NCBI RefSeq assembly: GCF_947623445.1
Contig: NC_135248.1
Span: 2,662,977 to 2,726,976, forward strand
Reading direction: 5' to 3'
Length of the DNA: 64,000 bases
Origin: Clavelina lepadiformis
Lineage: Eukaryota
Part shown: one piece after another, positions 451 through 51,325 of the stretch
How the letters are laid out: every line of letters starts with the position of its first letter
Position numbering within the stretch: the stretch's first letter is position 1
Made by a program: the position numbers and the translations under genes
The notes under the pieces: model-generated
Databases searched by the model: none
What the model was told of the DNA's origin: nothing
What the model saw: only the letters and a program-made list of their open reading frames with translations

Positions 451-2109
451 GCAGACCGATTAGACCAGTCAGCGCGCGAGGCATAAAAGAGTTGGATTTC
501 TTGCGTTTTTTGTGACATGGTTTCAGCGATTTTTAAATTAACGATTTAAGTGTTTCCTTCGTCGCATTCCCCGTGTCGTATTTTCGTATTTTCTGCCAAA
601 TGTCAATAAATTCTTGCCCAAAGCAGTGTTGTCACCCATCACACACCTGCATGACTCGAACTGTTATCATGATGCTGTCTTTGCAAAGGCGGCCGTTTGA
701 GATGAATGCCTTTTGCGAATCTCGTACCAAATTTAATAGCAACGTATTTAGGAACCTTATAGCAGAATTTTTATTGTTCGTCTTTAAAACACGGGCCGGG
801 TTTTGACTGCGTTTTTGTCTTTGATTAAGCACCGGCATTTTTCTTTTATTTGAAACTGTAAATTGACCCCTTTTGAATTTTTAAACGTCATTTCGCTTCT
901 TAATTATTTGTGAGTGTTGAATTGCTTTTATCTGTCCTTTCGTTGCTCGCGTTTTTATCAATTACAACCCTTGCAGCCGACGAGATATTCAACCGAAAGC
1001 GAAATTTGCACCGCACCTTAGCTCGAAACATTCTCCCGCGCAGTTATTTATTAATGTTATGATGTGTCGATGTATTCCGGTTTGCTGTTGTCTACGTTTT
1101 TCGATTCAAGTTTGTCTAAAGTTGTTCTTTTCTGGTTTGTCGTCAACCGCGCTTTTCGATGCTGGTGAAATTTTTAAAGCAGTGTTGTGATTAGCAATAC
1201 GTGTGTAAATAAGCAGTATACAATTCCAGTGTTTATTACACAGATGCTTGCGGATTTTTCAAAAATTATTTAATTTTTTTACCAAATAAAGCGATCATGT
1301 TTCACAAACAATGAAATAACTCGTCATTACTTGTTCCGTTAAAATTACGCAATTTTTTGTATTTGTTTCTCGATTTCGCTCGGCTTAACAATCACTCAGT
1401 TAATTTTGAATTACCAAGTACATATTCCAACCACCCTACTACGATTCGATTTGGCATATCCAGTCTACTACGTAGTTAACTGGTTGTAAATTTGTAAAAG
1501 GTACTCGCTCGTTTGGCTTTTTACAACCTATTTTGCATTGATTGGAATCCGTTGTCGATTTGGTCAGACGCGACAGCATTGAGTAATTACGTGCATTTTA
1601 TTGGTTGCCATGTTTTTCTCGTTTGTCATTTTAATTTCTCAATCATAACATAATTTGATCTAAGCAAAGCCTCGGATGATTCGACCCGTAAACTTTTTTA
1701 TAAAAACAAGCCACTTATTGCTGCTACGTATCCTCTGTCTATGCTTTAAATCCGGCGACATTTCATCAATACTAAAATAATCTTTCATCGAACCCAGCTG
1801 CACTACTTAAAAAGCAAAGGAACAAAAGTTATGTCACAGTGTACCGTTAAACCCTGCCTTGCATTTCAATTTTAATTGTCAACGTTTTCCTACCGGACAA
1901 CAGAATCATCCGTTTGTCATTTACTTTTGTTGTCATCGTTCGTTAACTTTTGATTCTTTGACATTCGCTAAGAACGAAAAAAATTCTGTAAAAATTTTGA
2001 ATGTCATTCGTGATTTTTCATTTCAGAGTGCATTTGCTGCTTTTCGTAAAAACTGACCGTTTAACGAAGAAAAATTTACAAAGATCGTATTTTGGATTAA
2101 TTGTCGTTA

Positions 2110-2420
2110 CTTCCTGTGGAGCTTTTCAAAGGTTTTCAAACTTTGCGCAAATAAAATCGGAAATTTGAGTTCGGATGATCACGATTGCTGTTAGTCAGCT
2201 AGCCGGAGGCATAAGAAGTGATTTGATGGCTATCCCATCCTCTCAGATTACTTCGGCAACATATCTTTCATCTAAAACGGGGTTTTCAAGCTGAGAAGTG
2301 GGTGAATAAGCCAAAAGTCCTCACAGCGAAGTTACGAGTGGGACAGAAATAGCGGAAAACATCGTCAAATCACGGATATCAAGCACGACAATCGAGCCTT
2401 TAAACATAGAGCCGCAGGCT
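2110..2420. repeat. Upstream module A, first of three related copies. Contains gagcttttcaaaggttttcaaactttg ... aatagcggaaaacatcgtcaaatcacgg ... agccgcag.
   Basis: Similar blocks recur at ~8215-8450 and ~8890-9100. All three lie 5' of the duplicated WxxW genes. Confidence 0.5.
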
Positions 2421-2761
2421 ACGACATTCAGACGAATGTGATATCTATACCCAGCATTAGATATAAATGAGTGTTGTAAATTATGACGCACCTTGGTACA
2501 AGGACACACAGCACTGTGCCTGGCGTCTGATGGTGTAAAAATCTTACGGTAGTTATTAGAAAACAAAATGATTCGATAGTGCAAGATGTAGGTAAGCTGG
2601 GCACAGAAATACGTATAATAGACTTGGCAGGATAGTTTAACTTTAGTAAGTTCATTAATCAATTACAGGTACACCAAAAACTCGATTTGTATAACGATTT
2701 TAAACTGATTTTTAAAGCGTAAGTTATTTGTTGGGAGTTACCGCCAGGCGGCTGCATCGAA

Positions 2762-2816
2762 ATGAAATTAATAGCAACGTTAGTCGTGACTACGATTCTC
2801 ATGCACGTGTCAGAAG
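2762..2816 (+). CDS. Copy 1 exon 1. Encodes signal peptide MKLIATLVVTTILMHVSE(G).
   Basis: ATG followed by a hydrophobic core. Donor G|GTGAGC, phase 1. Confidence 0.7.
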
Positions 2817-5800
2817 GTGAGCTCGCAAAATGTTCATATGAGCATCATTACTTACTCCAATAGCCTACTTGCAATTTGTAAATCTTACCGATTCTTCGCT
2901 TCATAAAGGTCCTGTTCTAATTAAAGAACGATAACATCAGCAAATGCAGTGTTGTTTGACATCAAGTTACAAACATTACTGATCAACCAAAACTAGTGTT
3001 CGTTTGACCACAAGACCTTTTGCAAACGTAATGTCTTGAAAACTGTGTATAATGTATCTGTATTTCTTACAGCTTGTCATGCGTATGAACATGGTGCTAG
3101 AAAAAGAAGACAGACAGAGGCTGAAGAAAGCAGCAGCAGTTACGAGTTAGGATACGATGCCGACGCATTGATCACATTTTTCACGTCGTGCATGTCTTCT
3201 ACAAGTGCTATTGCTATGGATTGGTACAGCGTCACAGACTGGGCAATCGTGGATTCTAACTGGTTTTATTATTCTGATAACGCTGACTGCTTTGGGTAAT
3301 TGCAACACGTCCGCAACGCTTAGCTTGCGGCTAGGTGATATAGCTAATAAGCTTACACAAATTAATTCGTCCTTTTGCTTTATGTTTGTAGTAATGGTGT
3401 AATTACTTGCACAATGACACTGTAGCATTGTACGCCAAGGTGCGTTTTTCTTTATTTTTTTACACTTCTTTCATTTCACGCGTTTCTTTTCACAGAGAAG
3501 AAGAAAGCAATGAAACACTTTGCTGGTTATCAAGGGTAGATGATTTTCTGGTTGAACAAATGGGCGATTACCTAAAAGATTGCATTAATCAGTTCGCCTT
3601 GGATTCCAACGATACTTCGTATGATGTGCAAACAAGCGGTAAATGTAAAGTCATGCATGTAGGTTTTCGTATAACTTATTCATCGAACGCACATCAAATT
3701 AAATGAATACGGATTGAAAAAACTTGTCTTTGAAAAATCAGATGATATTAACTGTTTCAATCGCAATCTCTTCTATAGAGACGTCGGAAAGAAAGAAACG
3801 ACAGCTACCTCCACCTCAACCGGCAACACTTCCGGGAACTTTCCCTCCACTTCCTGGTCGTCTACCCCCGCCTCCCGGAGCACCTCCTCCTGTTGGTGGT
3901 GGTCGTGATTCCCGATGTCCGGAGTTTGCAAGACGTGATTACAGCAATCAGCTTCTCCGCGACGTCCCTTTGGGATTTCGGAAACCACCACCACCCCTTC
4001 GACGACCACCTCTTCCACGAAGAGCAAGAAGAGAAGCGGAGGAGGAAGGTTTTAACATCACATCTGTGGTTGATTTCGTGGACAGCTACACAGTCTGCAG
4101 GTACAGCAGTGTAAAGCAACATCTTTTTCTCTTACTTTTGACGTAAGACAGCAAGTTAATCTATTACATAAATAAACCACTTGTGAGGCTTAAAATTTAA
4201 ACGCGAATGATTTTCATAACATACGCTAGACCAGTGCTCTTCAACCTTTTTGTCAACGCGGAACCTCTCATGTACTTTCGCGTTTGTCACGGAACCCCAC
4301 TAACAAAAGTTTAGAAGTTACAAATTGCTTGGTCAGAAAATAAAATATTTCGTTATTACACAAGTCTGTACTCTCTACTCAGTCTGCTTGTACTTTTGTG
4401 ATCTGTACATCGGCAACATCCTATGAGTGTGATGCAACAATAACGTTCTTGTTAACAGCAAGTGGCGTAACAAATATATCAATGTTTTATTGGGTTGTTG
4501 ACTGCACTCAACTTCTTGTTTAACAAACTGGCCTACTTGGAGTATGAATGCGGTACAGTAATCTGAAAAAAATCGGAATGACGCATCAAAATGCTGAAGC
4601 AAGAAATCAATTTCCCTAAATAAACGAGGAACCCTCGCGGAACCCTGAAAACTCACGGAACCCCACTACATGGTTCTCGGAACCCTTAGGTTCCGCGGAA
4701 CCCCTGTTGAAGAGCACTGCGCTAGACCAAATTTAGACGTTCAGGTTTCACACAACTGTTATCCCGTCTTAACTTACTATTTAAATTGAAACAAAAAAAT
4801 ACAACAACTTGCTGTTAACAGTGAATGTGAGCGATACACCGGGGAAGAACCGACTGGATGTTATGCGATCAGGTTTGACCAGCTCACCAGGTTCGGGTCA
4901 AACTTAAAAGGACCAATCCAGCGAGCAAACGCAAGATACGCTGGGGGTGAGTATCACTAAGAATAACAGATGAACATTTTCAGTTGCACCAGTTCCTTTA
5001 TGGACTATGTGATTTAAATATGATTAAAACAGGAAGTGACGTTGTGGGAAAATGCCAAGGGAGCGTCCACTGGACCGAGTGGTTCAACACGGACAACCCA
5101 AATGAAGGTCTCGGTGATGTCGAGTCTCTTTCCACGATCCAGACCCGTTACAGGAACAACATCTGCGTCACGCCTTCCGGGATTCAAGCAAGGTTGGCTC
5201 AAAGCAACCAGTCGTATGGTCGTGGGAACAATTTGCTGGATTTATCACCAACCACAGGGCTAAGTTGTTTGAACAGAGATCAAAGCAACAGTATTTGCCA
5301 AGACTACAGAGTCAGATTTTGTTGTCCAGGTAAACGGCATGTTGCCGATATAAATGTGCTGTGCTGTTCGCTAATACAACGTAAATTTTATAGATCGTAT
5401 GTAACGAAACTATGTCGTAGAACACTTTGTTGCAAATAGTCAAACCTATTCGCAGTTACCTTGTTCCATGCATAAAAACTTTGTTATTGAAGAAATGCGT
5501 TTACTGACTATGCCATTTCTTCTTTAGATTACGTTGGAGAGTGTCCACTACGTCATGGTTGGTCCAAGTACTTTGACGAGTCCGATCCCATACGTCGTTT
5601 TGGAGAGTTCGAAGTCTTATCTGAAATAAGGAGAAAGAATCCAGGATCTGTATGTACCTCGCCAACGGCTGTTGGTGCAAAGTTGCTTTCTGGCCAACCG
5701 TACTTAGCTGGAGGCGAGAGTCTTCAGTTGGATCCTTCTTCTGGACTTGTGTGTTTCAGTGCATTTCAGAGCGACAGAAGATGCAACGACTACAAAGTTA

Positions 5801-6554
5801 GATTTTGTTGTCCAGGTACATACGTTTTTGCTCTGTTCGCAGTTGTTACGTCACTGCAATGCATAACTTAATTGATATCTTTACTTTCTCATTCATTTTT
5901 AAGAATTCTTTATTTCTAGTTGCTATGTTTTTTGTTGCATATAGTTACATTCTCATATGCACAGATACCATTGGAAAATGTGAACATGGTCACAAATGGA
6001 CCAGATGGCAAGATACGATGTGGAGATACGGAGATGATGAAACATTTAAGAAGTTAGTTAGTGAGCGGGGCCTAGGATGCGAGTCGACTCCCAGCGCAAT
6101 CCAAGCTCAAGTTTCCGGAACTCGAAAACCTTACATTAGTGGAGGTGACACGTTATACATCTCTCCGAGTCTGGGTCTCTTCTGTTTAAATGGACAACAA
6201 TCTGATGATAAAAAGTGCAAAAACTATCGGGTTCGGTTTTGTTGCCAGCTGCCACCCAAACGCCTCCATCCGCCAACTAACCGTCCACCAACAACAACCG
6301 GAGGACGTGAAGAGAACCAAACAGGTCAGCGTCCCACGGATAATAATGGGGGTAACAACCAGATGCAACCGAATACTGGCCGCCAACCATCGAGGCCAAC
6401 CGGTGGCAATGCGGGAAATATCGGAGGTGGCAATAGGAGACAACCGAATAACGGTCGTCAACCTCCCAGGTTAATCGGTGGCAACACCAACAGGCCCAAC
6501 CCGTTTGGTGGCGGGCGAGGGCCCTCAATCGGACCGGGGCCTGGTAGAGGTTGA
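2762..6554 (+). CDS. Gene span of WxxW-domain secreted precursor, copy 1, in 8 coding exons. Architecture: signal peptide, propeptide with RKRR / RKKR / RRARR dibasic sites, Pro-rich linker, 3 x WxxW-type 6-Cys domains, Gly/Arg/Asn/Pro-rich tail.
   Basis: Exons at 2762-2816, 3073-3295, 3496-3668, 3779-4100, 4822-4946, 5032-5329, 5528-5815 and 5965-6554. Splice sites are GT..AG and the phases are consistent. The whole gene is duplicated at 9409-12785. Confidence 0.75.
3073..3295 (+). CDS. Copy 1 exon 2. Propeptide reads ACHAYEHGARKRRQTEAEESSSSYELGYDADALITFFTSC...DWYSVTDWAIVDSNWFYYSDNADCFG.
   Basis: Acceptor tatttcttacag, donor GG|GTAATT. Contains an RKRR furin-type site. Conserved in copy 2. 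Confidence 0.7.
3496..3668 (+). CDS. Copy 1 exon 3. Reads EEESNETLCWLSRVDDFLVEQMGDYLKDCINQFALDSNDTSYDVQTSGKCKVMHVGF.
   Basis: Acceptor ttttcacag. A phase-1 donor C|GTATAAC is shared by both copies. It is required to enter exon 4 in the frame that shows synonymous substitutions between the copies. Confidence 0.55.
3779..4100 (+). CDS. Copy 1 exon 4. Pro-rich linker reads (Q)TSERKKRQLPPPQPATLPGTFPPLPGRLPPPPGAPPPVGGGRDSRCPEFARRDYSNQLLRDVPLGFRKPPPPLRRPPLPRRARREAEEEGFNITSVVDFVDSYTVC.
   Basis: All three forward frames are open here. This frame is chosen for two reasons: the copy 1 versus copy 2 differences CTC/CTT, TTG/TTA and CGG/CGA are all synonymous in it, and only it connects in phase to exons 5 and 6. 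The antisense ORFs at 3773-4027 and 3862-4122 are artefacts. Confidence 0.65.
4232..4719. mobile_element. hAT-like MITE (488 bp) inserted in intron 4 of copy 1. Absent from copy 2.
   Basis: 14-15 bp terminal inverted repeats: CAGTGCTCTTCAAC(C) on the left, GTTGAAGAGCACTG on the right. Perfect 8-bp target-site duplication CGCTAGAC at 4224-4231 and 4720-4727. Internal (C)GGAACC repeats. No coding capacity. Confidence 0.7.
4822..4946 (+). CDS. Copy 1 exon 5. Reads SECERYTGEEPTGCYAIRFDQLTRFGSNLKGPIQRANARYAGG.
   Basis: Acceptor ttaacag, donor G|GTGAGT. Nearly identical to copy 2 at 10978-11092. Confidence 0.6.
5032..5329 (+). CDS. Copy 1 exon 6, WxxW-type domain 1. Reads GSDVVGKCQGSVHWTEWFNTDNPNEGLGDVESLSTIQTRYRNNICVTPSGIQARLAQSNQSYGRGNNLLDLSPTTGLSCLNRDQSNSICQDYRVRFCCP.
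   Basis: W-x-x-W followed by GD/E, and a 6-Cys spacing ending ...C-x-D/N-Y-[KR]-V-R-F-C-C. This resembles the Mucin2_WxxW family, recognised from memory. Acceptor taaaacag, donor CCAG|GTAAAC. Confidence 0.7.
5528..5815 (+). CDS. Copy 1 exon 7, WxxW-type domain 2. Reads DYVGECPLRHGWSKYFDESDPIRRFGEFEVLSEIRRKNPGSVCTSPTAVGAKLLSGQPYLAGGESLQLDPSSGLVCFSAFQSDRRCNDYKVRFCCP.
   Basis: Acceptor ttctttag, donor CCAG|GTACAT. Same Cys framework as domain 1. Confidence 0.7.
5965..6554 (+). CDS. Copy 1 exon 8, WxxW-type domain 3 plus low-complexity tail. Reads DTIGKCEHGHKWTRWQDTMWRYGDDE...CKNYRVRFCCQLPPKRLHPPTNRPPTTTGGREENQTGQRPTDNNGGNNQMQPNTGRQPSRPTGGNAGNIGGGNRRQPNNGRQPPRLIGGNTNRPNPFGGGRGPSIGPGPGRG*.
   Basis: Acceptor tatgcacag, stop TGA at 6552-6554. 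ORF-track entry 5805-6554 begins inside the intron. Minus-strand ORFs over the tail are artefacts. Confidence 0.7.
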
Positions 6555-8214
6555 GTGAACAAAGCGGACATACTGTGAATAACCACAAATTTTGCTTGTG
6601 CCTGGTAAAGGGAAAGAAGCGGTACATGACTAGTCACCAAACTTTTGTTTGCATTTATATCTTGTTTTGTCAACCAAGATTAATTAGCTTGACAATGTAA
6701 TGTTTTGTATAAACTGTGGCTTTGAACTTTGCTCTATCATATCAACGACTGCATATGGGTATAATAGATCTATGTTTAGAAAAACATGTTTATGTTTATA
6801 TGCTGAGATATTAGATATTATTATTTGCTCAATGTAAACGAACCACCAGCGTCAACAAAAGTTATGAGTAGTTTTATGCGATGAGATCATATTTATTACA
6901 GTGTTTATAATTATTGTTGGTAAAATCAATGCAGTTTGAACGCCTTATATATTTGAAAAATATCTTTTTAATACATTCCATAGCTTTTATAAAGGTTTTC
7001 TTATAACATTTCTGTATAGAATTTGCTCTGTAAAGGTTAAATTTTTTGTTCATTTTTCACGTTAATGTTATTTTATTAAACTACGTAAACACGCCTCGTA
7101 GTTTACTCAAGTTTTTTTTGTTTTTTAACAAATTTTCCAAAGTTTTTTATTCTTGCTTAATGTTTTTGGAAACAAAACACATCAGTGTCGGTAACGTTTT
7201 CGTAGAACTGTTAAATTTTTTGTTGTCGATATTTGTTATTGTTGTTGATGATTTTCTTTGTTATAAATACTTGATAATCGTAATTATCTCACGTTGTTTG
7301 CGTCTATGACAGCATATTCAGTATCAGATAAGAATATATTTGCCAGCGTGACTATACTCAGCAAAAGCTTTTAAACGAAACACTGTGTCCAGAGTAGATT
7401 TGCGTTTTATTTACGGAAATAACAAAACAAAGTTTTAGGAAAATATATCTAACTTAAATACTTGGAATTGTGATTTAAGGCTTTCTTGTTTTATTGTCTA
7501 GTTTACTGTTAAAAGTTTCTGTTTTCAAAATTTAAACATCGCCTACGTGAAAACAACTTATGATAGGCCGATACAACTCGCAAAAGATTTTTCGGTTATT
7601 TTTATTCTATACGAAATTCCTTATATTTAAAACAAGTTACAAGCATAAATATAAATGCAGAAAGATTTTTAAAGCAAACTATTATTCAGCCTGATAACTT
7701 TCAACTCTTTTTGTTCATATTTCACAGATCAATGACTAAGGCTTACGCAGCATTTGTGAGCCATTGCGATAGCTGCATTGTTGACCAATAATTTACCTAT
7801 TGTGTTCTAATGTCTATGTTACAAAAATGGGTGTTTTATTAGTGTTTTATCCAGATTGTTTGTTAAACTATAAGTGGTCAGGTATTAAGCGTATGCATTA
7901 AAATTTCGTCCACGCCTCTAATCGTGGTGTAGCTCGCTAAGACTGTGAGTCTTTTCTAGATATTTTAGGACCAAATCTACTTCGGCGGATTGACGTAAAA
8001 AATGCATTTCAAAACATGTTTAAGACTTTAAAACATCTTCAAAAGGTTTGTCATGTACTTTCCTAAATACTATTTTATGCGAACTATACAGCTTCACTTG
8101 CTGACCTCATTTTATAATAGTTACCTAAATATGTTTTGGGAAAAGAATATTTACAAAAATCATGCCTTGCTTGATTTATCTGACGTCATCAACAACCGTT
8201 ACATAAATTCCGGT

Positions 8215-8450
8215 TGAGCTTTTCAAAGGTTTCCAGACTTTGAATAAAGTTGGAAATTTTGAAATTGGTTGATCGTGATGGTTTGTCTGCCATAAAAGCA
8301 AGTTTTCTAAGCTTGGTGCGTGATTAATAAGTAGAAGTCATCACAGTAAAGTACTGGACAAGATAATAGCGGAAGAATCGTCAAATCCCGACCAAATAGA
8401 TTACGATAGCAAGCCCATGAACTGCGCTCGCACAAGCCGCAGAATTGTCA
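8215..8450. repeat. Upstream module B. Related to 2110-2420. Carries the motif aatagcggaagaatcgtcaaatcccga and agccgcag.
   Basis: Visible sequence similarity to modules A and C. Confidence 0.45.
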
Positions 8451-8889
8451 CGCTGACGATTATGGATGTGAGAGTTTATAAAATATGATGCACATCAATT
8501 CTAATAAAGATACCTTCAAAGTTTTACTGCTCTCTGGGGGTGTGAAAATCTTTCGTTTAATTATTTCACAAAAAAATGGCAAGTAGCAAAATACAGCATA
8601 GAAATACGGAATATTTTGTACGATTGATGGTTGAATCTTAATCTATCAATTATATTTGCACTAATAATTCGTTTTGTATTGCCAGTTACAAAGCTCTAAT
8701 TATCGTCCATTAACTTCTATGGTAGCCATGACGCTCGCTTCAAAAGAAATTATTTCATCGGTCATGTATATACATGATTCTTGTATTTGCATGTCGTTGC
8801 AGAAGTCAATCGTTTGCTCATTTCATGGAATTACTTTTTTCTCAAGATCATATTCTGCATTGTGTAATATCTACAAGCGTTGCATTATT

Positions 8890-9100
8890 TCCGGTGAAGC
8901 TTTTTAAATTTTACGAAAATAAAATGGAAGGCTTTCGTTAACGGGCTTTCTGAGCTGAGAAAAAAGTTAAAAATGCCTTAGTCATCGCTGCGAAGGTAAA
9001 TACGAGACCACAATAGCGGAAACGTGGTCATATCACGGTAACTCATGAAAACAAACTTTTGGCACAGAGCCGCAGGTCATAATTCTCCCACAAATATACG
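8890..9100. repeat. Upstream module C. Related to 2280-2420. Carries the motif aatagcggaaacgtggtcatatcacgg and agccgcaggt.
   Basis: Visible sequence similarity. Lies ~300 bp 5' of the copy 2 start codon. Confidence 0.45.
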
Positions 9101-9408
9101 GCATCGTATGTTTGAATAAGTGTTTATACGAAATATGACGAACCTTAACAGGCTATATATCTAATGATTGCTTCCAGGTTTGTACCAATTTTCAAATGGT
9201 GCGAAAATCTTACGGTCATTTGTTAAAAGTCAGTTTGTTTTAAGCAACACTTTGGCGTAGACGTAGGCAAGGCACAAAGTTCGGGAATATATTTTCCTCA
9301 AAAGACTATTCGTTGTTTCGGCAATTCAGTTTTACGTATTTTGAAGACTGGGTATAGTAAAATAAGCAATAAAATATTGGGTATACTCTATTGGAACGGT
9401 GTATCAAT

Positions 9409-12400
9409 ATGCAATTAATAGTAATGCTGTTTTTGACTACAGTTTTCAGTCATTTGTCGAAAGGTAAGCATTTATTTAGATAAAGCCTTTACTTTCTTCA
9501 CCAAGTTTTAAGTTATGTCTTCCCAATGCTTAGTCTTTATACTGTGAGCTACGGTGAGGTATTGTCAGCATATACGTTGTTACTTGACGCCGAAAGTAGT
9601 TACAAGTTACAAACATTACTGACAAAACAAAGGTCGTGCATATGTTTTGTAGTCGACTTTGAGAGTTTATTATATCTTCAATATCTTTAACAGCTTGTCA
9701 CTCACCCGAGCATGGTGCTAGAAAAAGAAGACAGACAGAGGCTGATGAAAGCAGCAGCAGTTACGAGTTAGGATACGATGCCGACGCATTGATCACATTT
9801 TTCACGTCGTGCATGTCTTCTACAAGTGCTATTGCTATGGATTGGTACAGCGTCACAGACTGGGCAATCGTGGATTCTAACTGGTTTTACTATTCCGAAA
9901 ATGAAGATTGCTTTGGGTAATTGCCACTCGTACGCAATGTTTGGCTTCAGGCTGTATGACACAGCTACAGCACCTACTGTATCAGTTTGTTTTGTCCAAT
10001 TATACAATAGATATAAGCCTACCAACGATATGCTTGCAAAAGAATTGACGTTCCTACTATGACATAAATATGCTTGTGACGTATTTTTCTTTGCATAAGT
10101 TTTCCAACTGATTATGGTGTGTTTCTTTTCACAGGGAAGAAGAAAGCAATGAAACACTTTGCTGGTTATCAAGGGTAGATGAATTTCTGGTTGAGCAAAT
10201 GGGCGATTACCTAAAAGATTGCATTAATCAGTTCGCCTTGGATTCCAACGACACTTCGTATGTTGTGCAAACAAGCGGTAAATGTAAAGTCATGCATGTA
10301 AGCTTTCGTATAACTTATTCATCGAACGCACATCAAATTAAATGAATACGGATTGAAAAAAAACTAGTCATTAAAAAAACAGAAAATATAAATAAATCTG
10401 CTTCAATCGAAAGTTTTGCTGCAGAAACAACGAGCAGGAAGAAACGACAGCTACCTCCACCTCAACCGGCAACACTTCCGGGAGCTCTCCCTCCACTTCC
10501 TGGTCGTCTACCCCCGCCTCCCGGAGCACCTCCTCCTGTTGGTGGTGGTAATGATTCCCGATGTCCGGAGTTTGCAAGACGTGATTACAGCAATCAGCTT
10601 CTTCGCGACGTCCCTTTAGGATTTCGAAAACCACCACCACCCCTTCGACGACCACCTCTTCCACGAAGAGCAAGAAGAGAAGCGGAGGAGGAAGGTTTTA
10701 ACATCACAACTGTGGTTGACTTCGTGGACAGCTACACAGTCTGCAGGTGATACGTTTCATTTTTGTTGTTGAAGGTTATAGACAGCAAGTTTCTTATAAG
10801 TTTGTAATGTGAAGCAAGACGCTTTACACTATCAAATTATTACGCAATAGTTGAAAACTTGCAATAATGAGACGTAATTCAAATCTTCTATTCTCATACA
10901 TTTGTTACAGCATAAATCGAGAGACAATTAAAATATAAATAAAATTATAACAACCTGCTGTTAACAGTGAATGTGAGCGATACACTGGGGAAGAACCGAC
11001 TGGATGTTATGCGATCAGGTTTGACCAGCTCACCAGGTTCGGGTCAAACTTAAAAGGACCAATCCAGCGAGCAAACGCAAGATACGCTGGGGGTGAGTAT
11101 CACTAAGAATAACAGATGAACATTTTCAGTTGCACCAGTTCCTTTATGGACTATGTGATTTAAATATGATTAAAACAGGAAGTGACGTTGTGGGAAAATG
11201 CCAAGGGAGCGTCCACTGGACCGAGTGGTTCAACACGGACAACCCAAATGAAGGTCTCGGTGATGTCGAGTCGCTTTCCACGATCCAGACCCGTTACAGG
11301 AACAACATCTGCGTCACGCCGTCCGGGATTCAAGCAAGGTTGGCTCAAAGCAACCAGTCGTATGGTCGTGGGAACAATTTGCTGGATTTATCACCAACCA
11401 CAGGGCTAAGTTGTTTGAACAGAGATCAAAGCAACGGTATTTGCCAAGACTACAGAGTCAGATTTTGTTGTCCAGGTATGTTCAACAAGTCTTTAATATT
11501 AGTTTATTTGCTGAGCTTTACGCTTGCACAACAAATTTTTTGTTGATCAAATAAGATAATAACACTACCTTTTACAATGATCTTAAACTTTTTGTACATA
11601 TCAACAGCATTGTTTTTCACAACACTTGTTTTGTCAAAATTTGTAATAGGCCTAAAGTTGTAGTTGCTGTTACTCTGTTTCTCTCATAAAAACTAGGCTA
11701 TGTCATTTTTCTTTAGATTACGTTGGAGAGTGTCCACTACGTCATGGTTGGTCCGAGTACTTTGACGAGTCCGATCCCAAAAAACGCTCAGGAGAATTCG
11801 AAGTCTTATCTGAAATAAGGAGAAAGAATCCAGGATCTGTGTGTAGCTCTCCGACGGCTGTTGGTGCAAAGTTGCTTACTGGCCAACCGTACTTAGCTGG
11901 AGGCGAAAGTCTTCAGTTGGTTCCTTCTTCTGGACTTGTGTGTCTCAGTGCATTTCAAAGTGACGGAAGATGCAACGACTACAAAGTTAGATTTTGTTGT
12001 CCAGGTACATAAAGTTCTGTTCTCTTTCTAGTTGGTATAAATAACAAGTAACGAAGTTGTTCACAGAGTTGTTACAGAGTTCACAAAGTTGTTACAGTTG
12101 TTACAGAGTTCACAGAGTTGTTACATTACTGCTATTGCCTACAAACCAAACCATTCTTGTTTGATATTATTAACTTTTTACTTGTATTCAGTAAGCTACT
12201 TGATATTACAATAGTTTCAATGTGTTTGTTGCATGTAGTTACATTCTCATATGCACAGATACCATTGGAAAATGTGAACATGGTCACAAATGGACTAAAT
12301 GGCAAGATACGACGCGGAGTTACGGAGATGACGAGAGATTGAAGACGTTAATTAAGGAGAACAGCTTGGGATGCGAGTCGACTCCCAGCGCAATCCAAGC

Positions 12401-12785
12401 TCAAGTTTCCGGAACTCGAAAACCTTACATTAGTGGAGGTGACACGTTATACATCTCTCCGAGTCTGGGTCTCTTCTGTTTAAATGGACAACAATCTGAT
12501 GATAAAAAGTGCAAAAACTACCGGGTTCGGTTTTGTTGCCAGCTGCCACCTAAACGCCTCCATCCGCCAACTAACCGTCCACCAACAACAATCGCAGGAC
12601 GCGAAGAGAACCAAACAGGTCAGCGTACCCCCGAAACTAATGGAGGTGAGGAGAAAAAGCCAACGAATAATGGTCGTCAACCATCGAGGCCTACCAGCGG
12701 CAACAACAGCAACAGGCCCGACCCGTTTGGTGGCGGACGAGGTCCCCCAAGCAGACCGGGACGTGGCAGAGGTGATCGGTCATAA
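9409..12785 (+). CDS. Gene span of WxxW-domain secreted precursor, copy 2, a tandem paralog with the same 8-exon structure. Signal peptide MQLIVMLFLTTVFSHLSK(G). Same dibasic sites. The C-terminal tail is shorter and diverged.
   Basis: Exons at 9409-9463, 9694-9916, 10135-10307, 10415-10746, 10978-11092, 11179-11475, 11717-12004 and 12259-12785. Exons are >90% identical to copy 1. Introns are far more diverged. Confidence 0.75.
12050..12125. repeat. Minisatellite of ~4 tandem copies of a ~17-bp unit, GTTACAGAGTTCACA(A/G)AGTT. Lies in intron 7 of copy 2 only.
   Basis: Direct tandem repetition seen in the sequence. Absent at the equivalent copy 1 position. Confidence 0.6.
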
Positions 12786-49320: not shown

Positions 49321-49736
49321 TGTGACGATTACGTCACGAATCACGAGTTGTTTTTGACATGTTTGGAATTTAATTTGGGATATTGGAATTCATTTGTTTA
49401 CCAGAGTTGAGTTTTCCTTAATGACGTCAGATAATTTCCTCGCTTGAACTAGCTTGCCACATATATATATACTGTTGTAATGTTTACGATCTTCCCTTTT
49501 CCCTTTTACCGTTTCACGTGTTACTGAGCGCGATGTAACATTCAGCAAGATTCGCCCGAAGGCAAAAGCCTTCGTGTCCTATAATAAACAAAATGAGACT
49601 TTATAATTTAGTAATGTACATAGACAGAATTTAAGAAGCAAACAGCATTATCAAACCGTTCAAGAAATGACAACCATCTCATCGAGTGAGCAGAAAAACA
49701 AGATATCAATTCAACCATCATCGATTTCTTTGTCAT
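49321..49736. repeat. 3' terminal direct repeat (LTR-like).
   Basis: See 48259-48675. ORF-track entries 48127-48348 and 49222-49410 share the identical tail ...DDYVTNHELFLTCLEFNLGYWNSFVYQS because they read through this repeat. Confidence 0.6.
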
Positions 49737-51325
49737 ACACCAATACTCGAGTTGACCATAGTAGGCTATTTTAAGCGATGGTGTCGAAGTATTTGTCTTT
49801 AAGTTGAAAAGTCTTTGCATCACCGCAGGAGTTCCATTTATAGAGCTTGTCCACGAATCCACGTGCTCAACAGCCTGTTGCAACGATAAACTGGAATGTA
49901 GATGCTGGGTTTTTGGACATCAAACTTGGACCACATAGTAAGGAGGCAGACACTCAAGCCAACGACTTTATAAAGCAAAAAGCATGGACGTCATTCTAAT
50001 TGCAATCACAACCTAGGAAGAACTAAACCACGAGAAAAACAAGTGTAGCTCGAACAGGTCTATGTAACGATTTGTCTCAGACATCAAAGAATTGACACTG
50101 AACCACAAGCCAGTACCTTTTCTACGGCATTTGATCTTATTTCTGCGTGGTTTCTATTGTTGTTTCTGTTATTTTACCTACCATCTAATCTATATTTAAC
50201 TTTAATTAAACTTTAAATGGCTAAAATCAATTTATTGTATACCTAATCTCCTAACAAAACCCCCCCTATCTTTATCAACAAACTGCGTAACATTTTCAGT
50301 GAAATAAACACTTTCATTCATTAACTGGCAGTGTAAGAGCATCAGGCTGCAAATTTTAACAGTAGAGTTTAGACTTTTCAATGTAATTGCTGTAAGCAGT
50401 TTGGTAATATGTCCACTTATTGCAGAATTGATGCAATTGGATTGTTAGAATGTCTTGTTGCTTTGTCAAACGGGAAGTCTAATTATGTTACTCCCTACGT
50501 CATACATTAACTCACAGAGGCTTGACCATTTGACTGAAGACGTTTACATATCATTGTTTTATTAATTTATAAGTAATAGTTGCAGGAAAATTCAATCTCA
50601 TAATCCCTTAGTATTTGTAGGACAAAAACTAAGGTTCCGATATAGCGCAAATAAATTTCATTTTGGGTAGAGCTTGTAGAAAGCCTTTCATCAGTCGCAA
50701 CGAATTTTCGTCTTGGTTGTTTTAAGCGTTTCGTTTGGACTTTTCCATTTTCTCCAAATAATGCTTTCACCAAAAACTCCAGAACGAAGCCAGACTCCGA
50801 TCAATGCAGAGTAAAAGCAGTTATTGAACCACCTGCCTCCACTTCCACCGCCGTAATTCGTTGCACAGTTTAAATTACTGCAAACGCAGTATAACTTGAA
50901 AACAGCCTGTAACAGGTCTACAGTTTACCATTTGTATTACGTTAATAACATAATATAACTTACAAAATATTTTATTTCAATTTATTGTAGGCCTATAGTA
51001 ATATATAGCTATGAGATTCTGTAAAACTAAAAAGTTGAACGCAGTTTTCCTGTCACATGTTGTTCTAATGGTCCCTATCTGGCGTAGAAAAAGAATGACC
51101 GTTGTGTCAATGAATTAAATTACCCCTGTATTTCACTATAACTATTTATACGAAAGCAGCAGCAGAATGTTCTGAAGTTTAACAATGATAAAATAGGAGC
51201 TATCGTAAAACAATTTTTGAGAAAAACTTATTAACTTTATCGCCCAGCAAAAGTTTCTTGCTTTAGCACAGATAATTAGCAAAACCCATGAACGTCTATA
51301 AAGTTTAAACGGCAACGCTCTATAG

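Follow-up and report, generated by a model that had tools for sequence, protein, structure and literature searches.

Three diverged copies of a gene's 5' end at a tandem pair of WxxW-domain genes in the ascidian Clavelina lepadiformis

The 64-kb stretch of contig NC_135248.1 of the ascidian Clavelina lepadiformis analysed here (the window) contains two head-to-tail tandem genes for WxxW-domain proteins, LOC143471206 (gene 1) and LOC143471207 (gene 2), together with three diverged copies of one 5' stretch of about 600-700 bases that comprises an upstream region, a leader and a signal-peptide exon 1. These modules are referred to as M1, which is located 5' of gene 1, and M2 and M3, which form a tandem pair 5' of gene 2. 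The three modules are probably the paralogous 5' ends of one gene, each consisting of the proximal upstream region, a presumed leader of about 270-300 nt past a TATA-like element, and the signal-peptide exon 1. Each of M1 and M3 leads directly into the first coding exon annotated for its WxxW gene, and the similarity is unbroken from about 640 nt upstream into the coding exon, so that the module corresponds to the whole 5' end of the gene. The modules, genes and first exons are the following.

2100..2816, plus strand: M1, the 5' module of gene 1, with blocks A-E, TATAAAT at 2462-2468, blocks F-H and coding exon 1.
8186..8866, plus strand: M2, an extra tandem copy with a 681-nt period, with all blocks A-H, TATAAAA at 8477-8483 and a dead exon-1 equivalent at 8744-8805.
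8867..9463, plus strand: M3, the 5' module of gene 2, with a degenerate block A, blocks B-H, TATACGA at 9125-9131 and coding exon 1.
2762..6554, plus strand: coding sequence of gene 1 (LOC143471206), 8 exons; the spliced model is 99% identical to XP_076825717.1.
9409..12785, plus strand: coding sequence of gene 2 (LOC143471207), 8 exons, 659 amino acids; the model agrees with the annotated protein.
2762-2816, plus strand: coding exon 1 in M1, MKLIATLVVTTILMHVSE, with the ATG at 2762 and a phase-1 GT donor, ending GAAG/GTGAGC (the slash marks the exon border).
9409-9463, plus strand: coding exon 1 in M3, MQLIVMLFLTTVFSHLSK, with the ATG at 9409 and a GT donor, ending AAAG/GTAAGC.

In blastn comparisons against the whole window, M1 matches M2 at 59% identity over 430 nt (E 7e-12) and at 78% over 76 nt (E 4e-10), and matches M3 at 60% over 306 nt (E 5e-11) and at 70% over 74 nt. 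The direct blastn match between M2 and M3 spans only 40 nt (E 3e-4); the two modules are nonetheless collinear across all blocks. In the ungapped columns of the three-way alignment, the identity of the module core is 59% for M1 and M2, 60% for M1 and M3 and 53% for M2 and M3. A first-pass annotation of this sequence had placed one module before the first gene copy and two before the second, and both the three-way alignment and blastn confirm this arrangement. No further copies have been found by sensitive blastn searches with each module, either in the window or in about 21 kb of additional DNA from a second C. lepadiformis assembly, GCA_961645235.1, which represents another individual; altogether the search covered about 85 kb of the 210-Mb genome. 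In this second assembly M2 and M3 are 99.7-99.9% identical to the copies in the window (M2, 99.9%). Because both copies are present in an independent assembly of another individual, the M2/M3 tandem is not an assembly artefact.

The order of nine conserved blocks is unchanged among the three copies; the series begins about 640 nt upstream and leads to the ATG and exon 1. Their positions are listed below, together with those of the extended islands around blocks A and D.

M1 2120, M2 8217, M3 8898, plus strand: block A, AGCTTTTYAAA, a collinear block.
M1 2119-2145, M2 8216-8242, M3 8897-8923 (degenerate), plus strand: full block-A island, 27 nt, with a CAAAG/CTTTG inverted pair.
M1 2283, M2 8304, M3 8947, plus strand: block B, TTTYNRAGCT.
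M1 2316, M2 8336, M3 8980, plus strand: block C, AGTCMTCRC.
M1 2348, M2 8365, M3 9012, plus strand: block D1, AATAGCGGAA.
M1 2364, M2 8380, M3 9027, plus strand: block D2, GTCAWATCMCG.
2348-2374, 8365-8390, 9012-9037, plus strand: whole block D (AATAGCGGAA..GTCAAATCACG in M1), the strongest island across all three modules, including 10 identical nt in a row.
2410-2417, 8435-8442, 9068-9075, plus strand: block E, AGCCGCAG, exact in all three copies, which are its only 3 plus-strand matches in the window.
2479-2491, 8481-8493, 9131-9143, plus strand: block F, AWWTATGAYGMAC, directly 3' of the TATA-like element.
2532-2548, 8539-8555, 9198-9214, plus strand: block G, GGTGYRAAAATCTTWCG, 3 matches against 0.01 expected.
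2601-2615, 8596-8610, 9272-9286, plus strand: block H, GCAYARARWTMSGKA.

The TATA-like elements stand just before block F, 269-300 nt ahead of the ATG or the triplet that corresponds to it. Relative to them, blocks A-E fall at about -50 to -340, and blocks F-H lie at or past the presumed start. The islands that had been described from the letters of the sequence hold up to different degrees. The first of them, GAGCTTTTCAAAGGTTT(T/C)CA(A/G)ACTTTG, was thought to be common to all three modules; it is shared by M1 and M2 only (25 of 27 positions), whereas in M3 the region is degenerate (66% identical) and keeps just AGCTTTTTAAA and the following AATAAAATGGAA. The island is 27 nt long, one T having been dropped in the original description. 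The shared core is present in all three copies in its first half, but its second half reads GTGGTCATATCACG in M3, with two mismatches; the combined pattern AATAGCGGAA-N(5-6)-GTCAWATCMCG has 3 matches against 0.00 expected. The third island, which is block E, was correctly reported as shared. The matching spacing applies only from block B on, where distances agree within about 10-20 nt, whereas the distance from A to B is 163 nt in M1, 87 nt in M2 and 49 nt in M3. The modules were taken to end at about 2430, 8460 and 9110, but the similarity extends about 350 nt farther, past three additional blocks and as far as the ATG with its exon 1. Several blocks contain putative binding-site motifs, which serve as leads only: GGAA cores in blocks D and H that may be ETS-like, a presumably T-box-like GTGNNA half-site in block G, inverted CAAAG cores in block A that may be TCF/Sox-like, and a TGACG core in block F that is presumably bZIP-like.

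The first exons of M1 and M3 are used by two independent annotations, namely RefSeq (XP_076825717/8) and the CAK proteins of GCA_961645235.1, and both begin gene 2 at the M3 exon. These two exons are 69% identical, with a synonymous divergence (dS) of about 0.85 estimated from few sites. In the exon-1 equivalent of M2 (8744-8805), the ATG is replaced by AAG (8744-8746), the length has changed by 7 nt and the GT donor is replaced by TC (8806-8807), so that the exon ends GAAG/TCAATC. Since M2 lacks both the ATG and the GT donor, its exon is dead and M2 provides no coding first exon. Furthermore, no consensus splice donor is visible on reading M2 downstream of its TATA element (8510-8868). M2 reaches about 60 nt into intron-1-like sequence and then adjoins the start of M3, with a period of 681 nt. 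The pair of M2 and M3 is thus the product of a tandem duplication that took in the complete 5' end of gene 2, or that of its ancestor. The suggestion that the modules were carried along with the gene duplication and partly re-duplicated is thus sustained: M1 and M3 run into gene exons, and M2 is a 681-nt tandem copy.

The product of gene 1 is secreted and contains an N-terminal signal peptide, three Pfam Mucin2_WxxW domains (PF13330, E 1e-54) and a tail rich in Pro, Gly and Asn. Exact-protein look-ups returned genome contigs only and no transcript contigs.

The 5' ends of the two genes differ far more than the rest of their coding parts. Exons 2-8 are 89-99% identical, with a Nei-Gojobori (NG86) dS of 0.03-0.25 (mean 0.105), and in the comparison of 3061-6409 with 9682-12703 intron 5 is the same throughout (100%) and intron 3 matches at 87% between the genes. 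Essentially no alignment is possible inside introns 1, 2, 4 and 6, in intron 7 the last 100 nt or so, beside exon 8, can be aligned, and the tracts of high identity stop within tens of bases of the exon borders (exons 2, 7 and 8). Exon 1 and the upstream DNA differ by about 30-47% between the copies, and the modules by 40-47%, against a gene-body dS of about 0.1. Such a mosaic of near-identical tracts, introns included, beside diverged DNA is the hallmark of gene conversion that homogenises the coding part and does not extend to the 5' end. The process seems to be ongoing, because the identity of one tract (4795-5332 and 10941-11478) differs between haplotypes, being 98.7% in the window and 95.8% in GCA_961645235.1. 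The modules preserve a divergence much older than that of the exons. The otherwise unalignable first introns share an isolated island (2963-2998 and 9603-9638) that is 83-90% identical, agrees exactly over 20 nt in a row (CAAGTTACAAACATTACTGA) and may be an intronic regulatory element.

In the proposed scenario, the module would have been copied along with the gene, and the 5' end would have been copied once more on its own as the 681-nt tandem unit M2. M1 and M3 would then be the working proximal promoters and leaders, with the positions of the TATA elements and of the transcription start sites predicted from sequence. Blocks A-E would probably be transcription-factor sites that give both paralogues like tissue-specific expression, and blocks F-H may be core-promoter or leader elements. 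M2 would be either a slowly decaying relic or a redundant, enhancer-like module or second promoter for gene 2. M2 may still be working, because every block has been kept while the exon is dead, and its block A is better preserved than that of M3; activity of M2 is nevertheless to be regarded as a tentative possibility, somewhat more doubtful than not.

Several observations suggest that the blocks are constrained. The modules align over 300-430 nt, whereas intron similarity outside the conversion tracts (introns 3 and 5 and about 100 nt at the 3' end of intron 7) is confined to patches of at most 100 nt. Columns identical in all three modules are clustered (column permutation; sum of squared run lengths, P=0.003; longest run of 10 nt, P=0.015), a test to be read with the caveat that alignment methods clump matches. 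Between the two assemblies, 2 of the 28 allelic substitutions in M1 fall into three-way invariant columns, where 8 are expected (binomial P=0.006), and none lies inside blocks A, D, E, F or G. M3 has two allelic differences; one of them falls into block G, at a degenerate site, which it changes to the M1 state. The variant M1 alleles match M2 or M3 no more than expected by chance, so M1 bears no sign of recent ectopic conversion. The idea that the islands are cis-regulatory can therefore be retained with moderate support: they are clustered, depleted of single-nucleotide polymorphisms (SNPs) and better kept than the intron interiors, and cis-regulatory constraint on them would account for this pattern.

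Allelic divergence in the region is very uneven, with 3 differences per 1250 nt in M2 and M3 (8250-9500), 2-4.6% in the flanks and 20 differences per 250 nt (8%) in the leader part of M1 (2500-2750). As divergence is patchy region-wide, its low level in M2 and M3 is not usable as evidence of constraint.

A number of points weigh against the interpretation of the modules as paralogous 5' ends with functional blocks. The constraint tests are weak and of low power, being based on three paralogues and two alleles only, and the SNPs of M1 are bunched in one stretch (2570-2720). The identity of the modules, 53-60% overall, is little above that of some intron stretches, and islands of identity could also arise by short ectopic conversions. 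The limits of promoter and leader, like the assignment of the TATA elements, are predictions from sequence alone. The three module distances, which yield no order of the duplications, form a star in which M1 has the shortest branch and M2 and M3, although neighbours, lie furthest apart. Finally, none of the blocks has been found upstream of either WxxW gene of Ciona intestinalis, although this absence is weak evidence because the evolutionary distance is very large.

A rival explanation is that of neutral relics, old duplicated flanking DNA in which the islands are chance survivors or short conversion patches, with no regulatory function and with M2 as a dead by-product. Patchy gene conversion is clearly active at the locus, the overall identity is low, the exon of M2 is dead, an island of like quality is present in intron 1, and Ciona has no trace of the blocks. 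However, nine blocks are kept in one order in all three modules while most intron interiors are unalignable, both the clustering of identical columns and the depletion of SNPs in conserved columns depart from chance, and the allelic variants of M1 show no preference for the M2 or M3 state. On this balance, neutral survival of the islands is unlikely, and the reading of the modules as retained 5' ends is preferred.

A membership of the modules in a genome-wide family of transposable elements, such as a short interspersed nuclear element or a miniature inverted-repeat transposable element (MITE), that stands upstream of the genes by chance would be in keeping with the repeat content of one C. 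lepadiformis assembly, 43.9% (PMC10950049). It is nonetheless highly improbable: the only three copies in 64 kb stand at like places and point the same way with respect to a WxxW gene or its exon-1 relic, the additional DNA of GCA_961645235.1 contains none, and the similarity continues into the coding exon and intron 1. Explanation by a known dispersed repeat had been named as what would overturn the first-pass annotation, and over the approximately 85 kb searched no dispersed copies appeared. In the modules there are neither terminal inverted or long terminal repeats nor a tRNA-like part, and they have no Rfam match at E<=1. A scan of a metagenome collection with the block-D pattern returned one contig, which lacks flanking similarity and was dismissed as a chance match.

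Very little credence can be given to a variable-first-exon array with M2 and M3 as alternative first exons of gene 2, or to islands within a transcribed non-coding exon or RNA: two promoter-like modules do stand in tandem before one gene body, and M2 retains a canonical TATAAAA and all the blocks, but the exon equivalent of M2 has neither a start codon nor a usable donor, both annotations start gene 2 in M3, and for an RNA the consensus fold is negligible and Rfam offers no match. Likewise, the untranslated 5' exon that had been offered as an alternative to regulatory elements finds no backing, there being no sign of a separate exon, no conserved RNA fold, and similarity that is continuous into coding exon 1. 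Related candidates have been rejected. For a structured RNA, the three module cores yield a negligible consensus fold of -8.45 kcal/mol over 376 columns with a covariation term of -0.21. Distances between the blocks differ by 1-3 nt among the copies, and since these indels do not come in multiples of three, a coding role of the blocks is rejected. The ATG shared in block F opens reading frames of 15, 33 and 9 codons in the three modules, so that an upstream open reading frame of conserved length is not found.

In Ciona intestinalis, the corresponding locus (AP043573.1, 1202615-1226515) has a PH_21-domain gene and, after it, a tandem pair of WxxW genes, which is the synteny seen in Clavelina. 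The Ciona WxxW copies are about 60-67% identical in their exons, and no upstream similarity was found between these two paralogues. A second protein search returned no tunicate closer than Ciona, and a literature search found nothing on the Ciona orthologue. Because of the like synteny, the gene pair may predate the split between Clavelina and Ciona; the duplication may be ancient, with concerted evolution in Clavelina, or may have occurred independently. The most extended version of this history is rather unlikely: here the pair predates the split, its exons have since been homogenised by conversion, the nine blocks are the sole surviving trace of an ancient promoter, retained under selection in all three modules, and M2 has been co-opted as a shadow enhancer or as a second start for gene 2.

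Other features of the locus concern its introns and spacers. Within intron 4 of gene 1 lies a MITE-like insertion of about 500 nt (4226-4725) whose terminal inverted repeats measure 20 nt (90%). The second assembly has this insertion too, the matching intron of gene 2 lacks it, and it is single-copy in the window. Intron 7 of gene 2 holds a short tandem array (12047-12124) of units of the AGTTGTTAC and AGAGTTCAC type. Elsewhere in the window, a direct repeat of about 415 nt (48259-48672 and 49321-49737) has two copies that are 96% identical, lie about 1 kb apart and have no obvious open reading frame. Between the WxxW genes, GCA_961645235.1 has about 10.7 kb (L001 14511-23795 and L002 1-7356) that is missing from the window at about 7380 and includes a minus-strand gene for a 623-amino-acid zona-pellucida-domain protein; the cause is a presence/absence structural variant that distinguishes individuals, or else a discrepancy of assembly. 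In the same assembly, a copy of about 500 nt of exon 7, intron 7 and exon 8 of gene 1 (L002 7666-8169) is located about 600 nt upstream of M2. It is 93% identical to window positions 5561-6079, is annotated there as a 161-amino-acid WxxW gene and is bordered on both sides by one stretch of about 92 nt (window positions about 7592-7683). The intergenic spacer between the WxxW genes seems to be prone to partial duplications.

For a colonial ascidian, the locus provides a natural footprint, drawn from three copies, of the region that regulates a secreted WxxW (mucin-type domain) gene. Its nine short candidate sites are suited to reporter assays by electroporation, a standard technique in ascidians. 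The current understanding is unchanged by it, and its use is mainly that of a map of likely regulatory sites.

Four known kinds of organisation can be compared with the locus. As in paralogous promoters after tandem duplication, the upstream region, the leader and the first exon have been copied together, and short collinear blocks persist in diverged flanks; unlike in those cases, a third copy of the 5' end stands alone, and the locus is known from sequence alone. Concerted evolution by conversion with escaping flanks, of which the primate globin duplicates are the classic case, is matched by tracts of 89-100% identity that include introns 3 and 5 beside a diverged exon 1 and upstream region; here the tracts end near exon borders, and Ciona has a like gene pair but with diverged copies. 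Variable-first-exon gene clusters, such as UGT1A and the clustered protocadherins, likewise have tandem units of promoter and first exon before shared downstream exons, but only two units are present here and M2 has neither a start codon nor a splice donor; the likeness is superficial, because a usable first exon per unit is missing. As with shadow enhancers and tandemly duplicated promoters, a redundant module with all its blocks kept is located about 650 nt upstream of the working one, although the activity of M2 is putative and M2 may be a decaying relic. Taken together, the locus represents paralogous promoter retention and partial tandem duplication within a concertedly evolving gene pair. 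It is a previously undescribed instance that does not depart from known kinds of genome organisation, and a tidy example of a known pattern in which exons are kept alike by conversion, promoters and exon 1 drift, and an orphan promoter arises from a partial tandem duplication.

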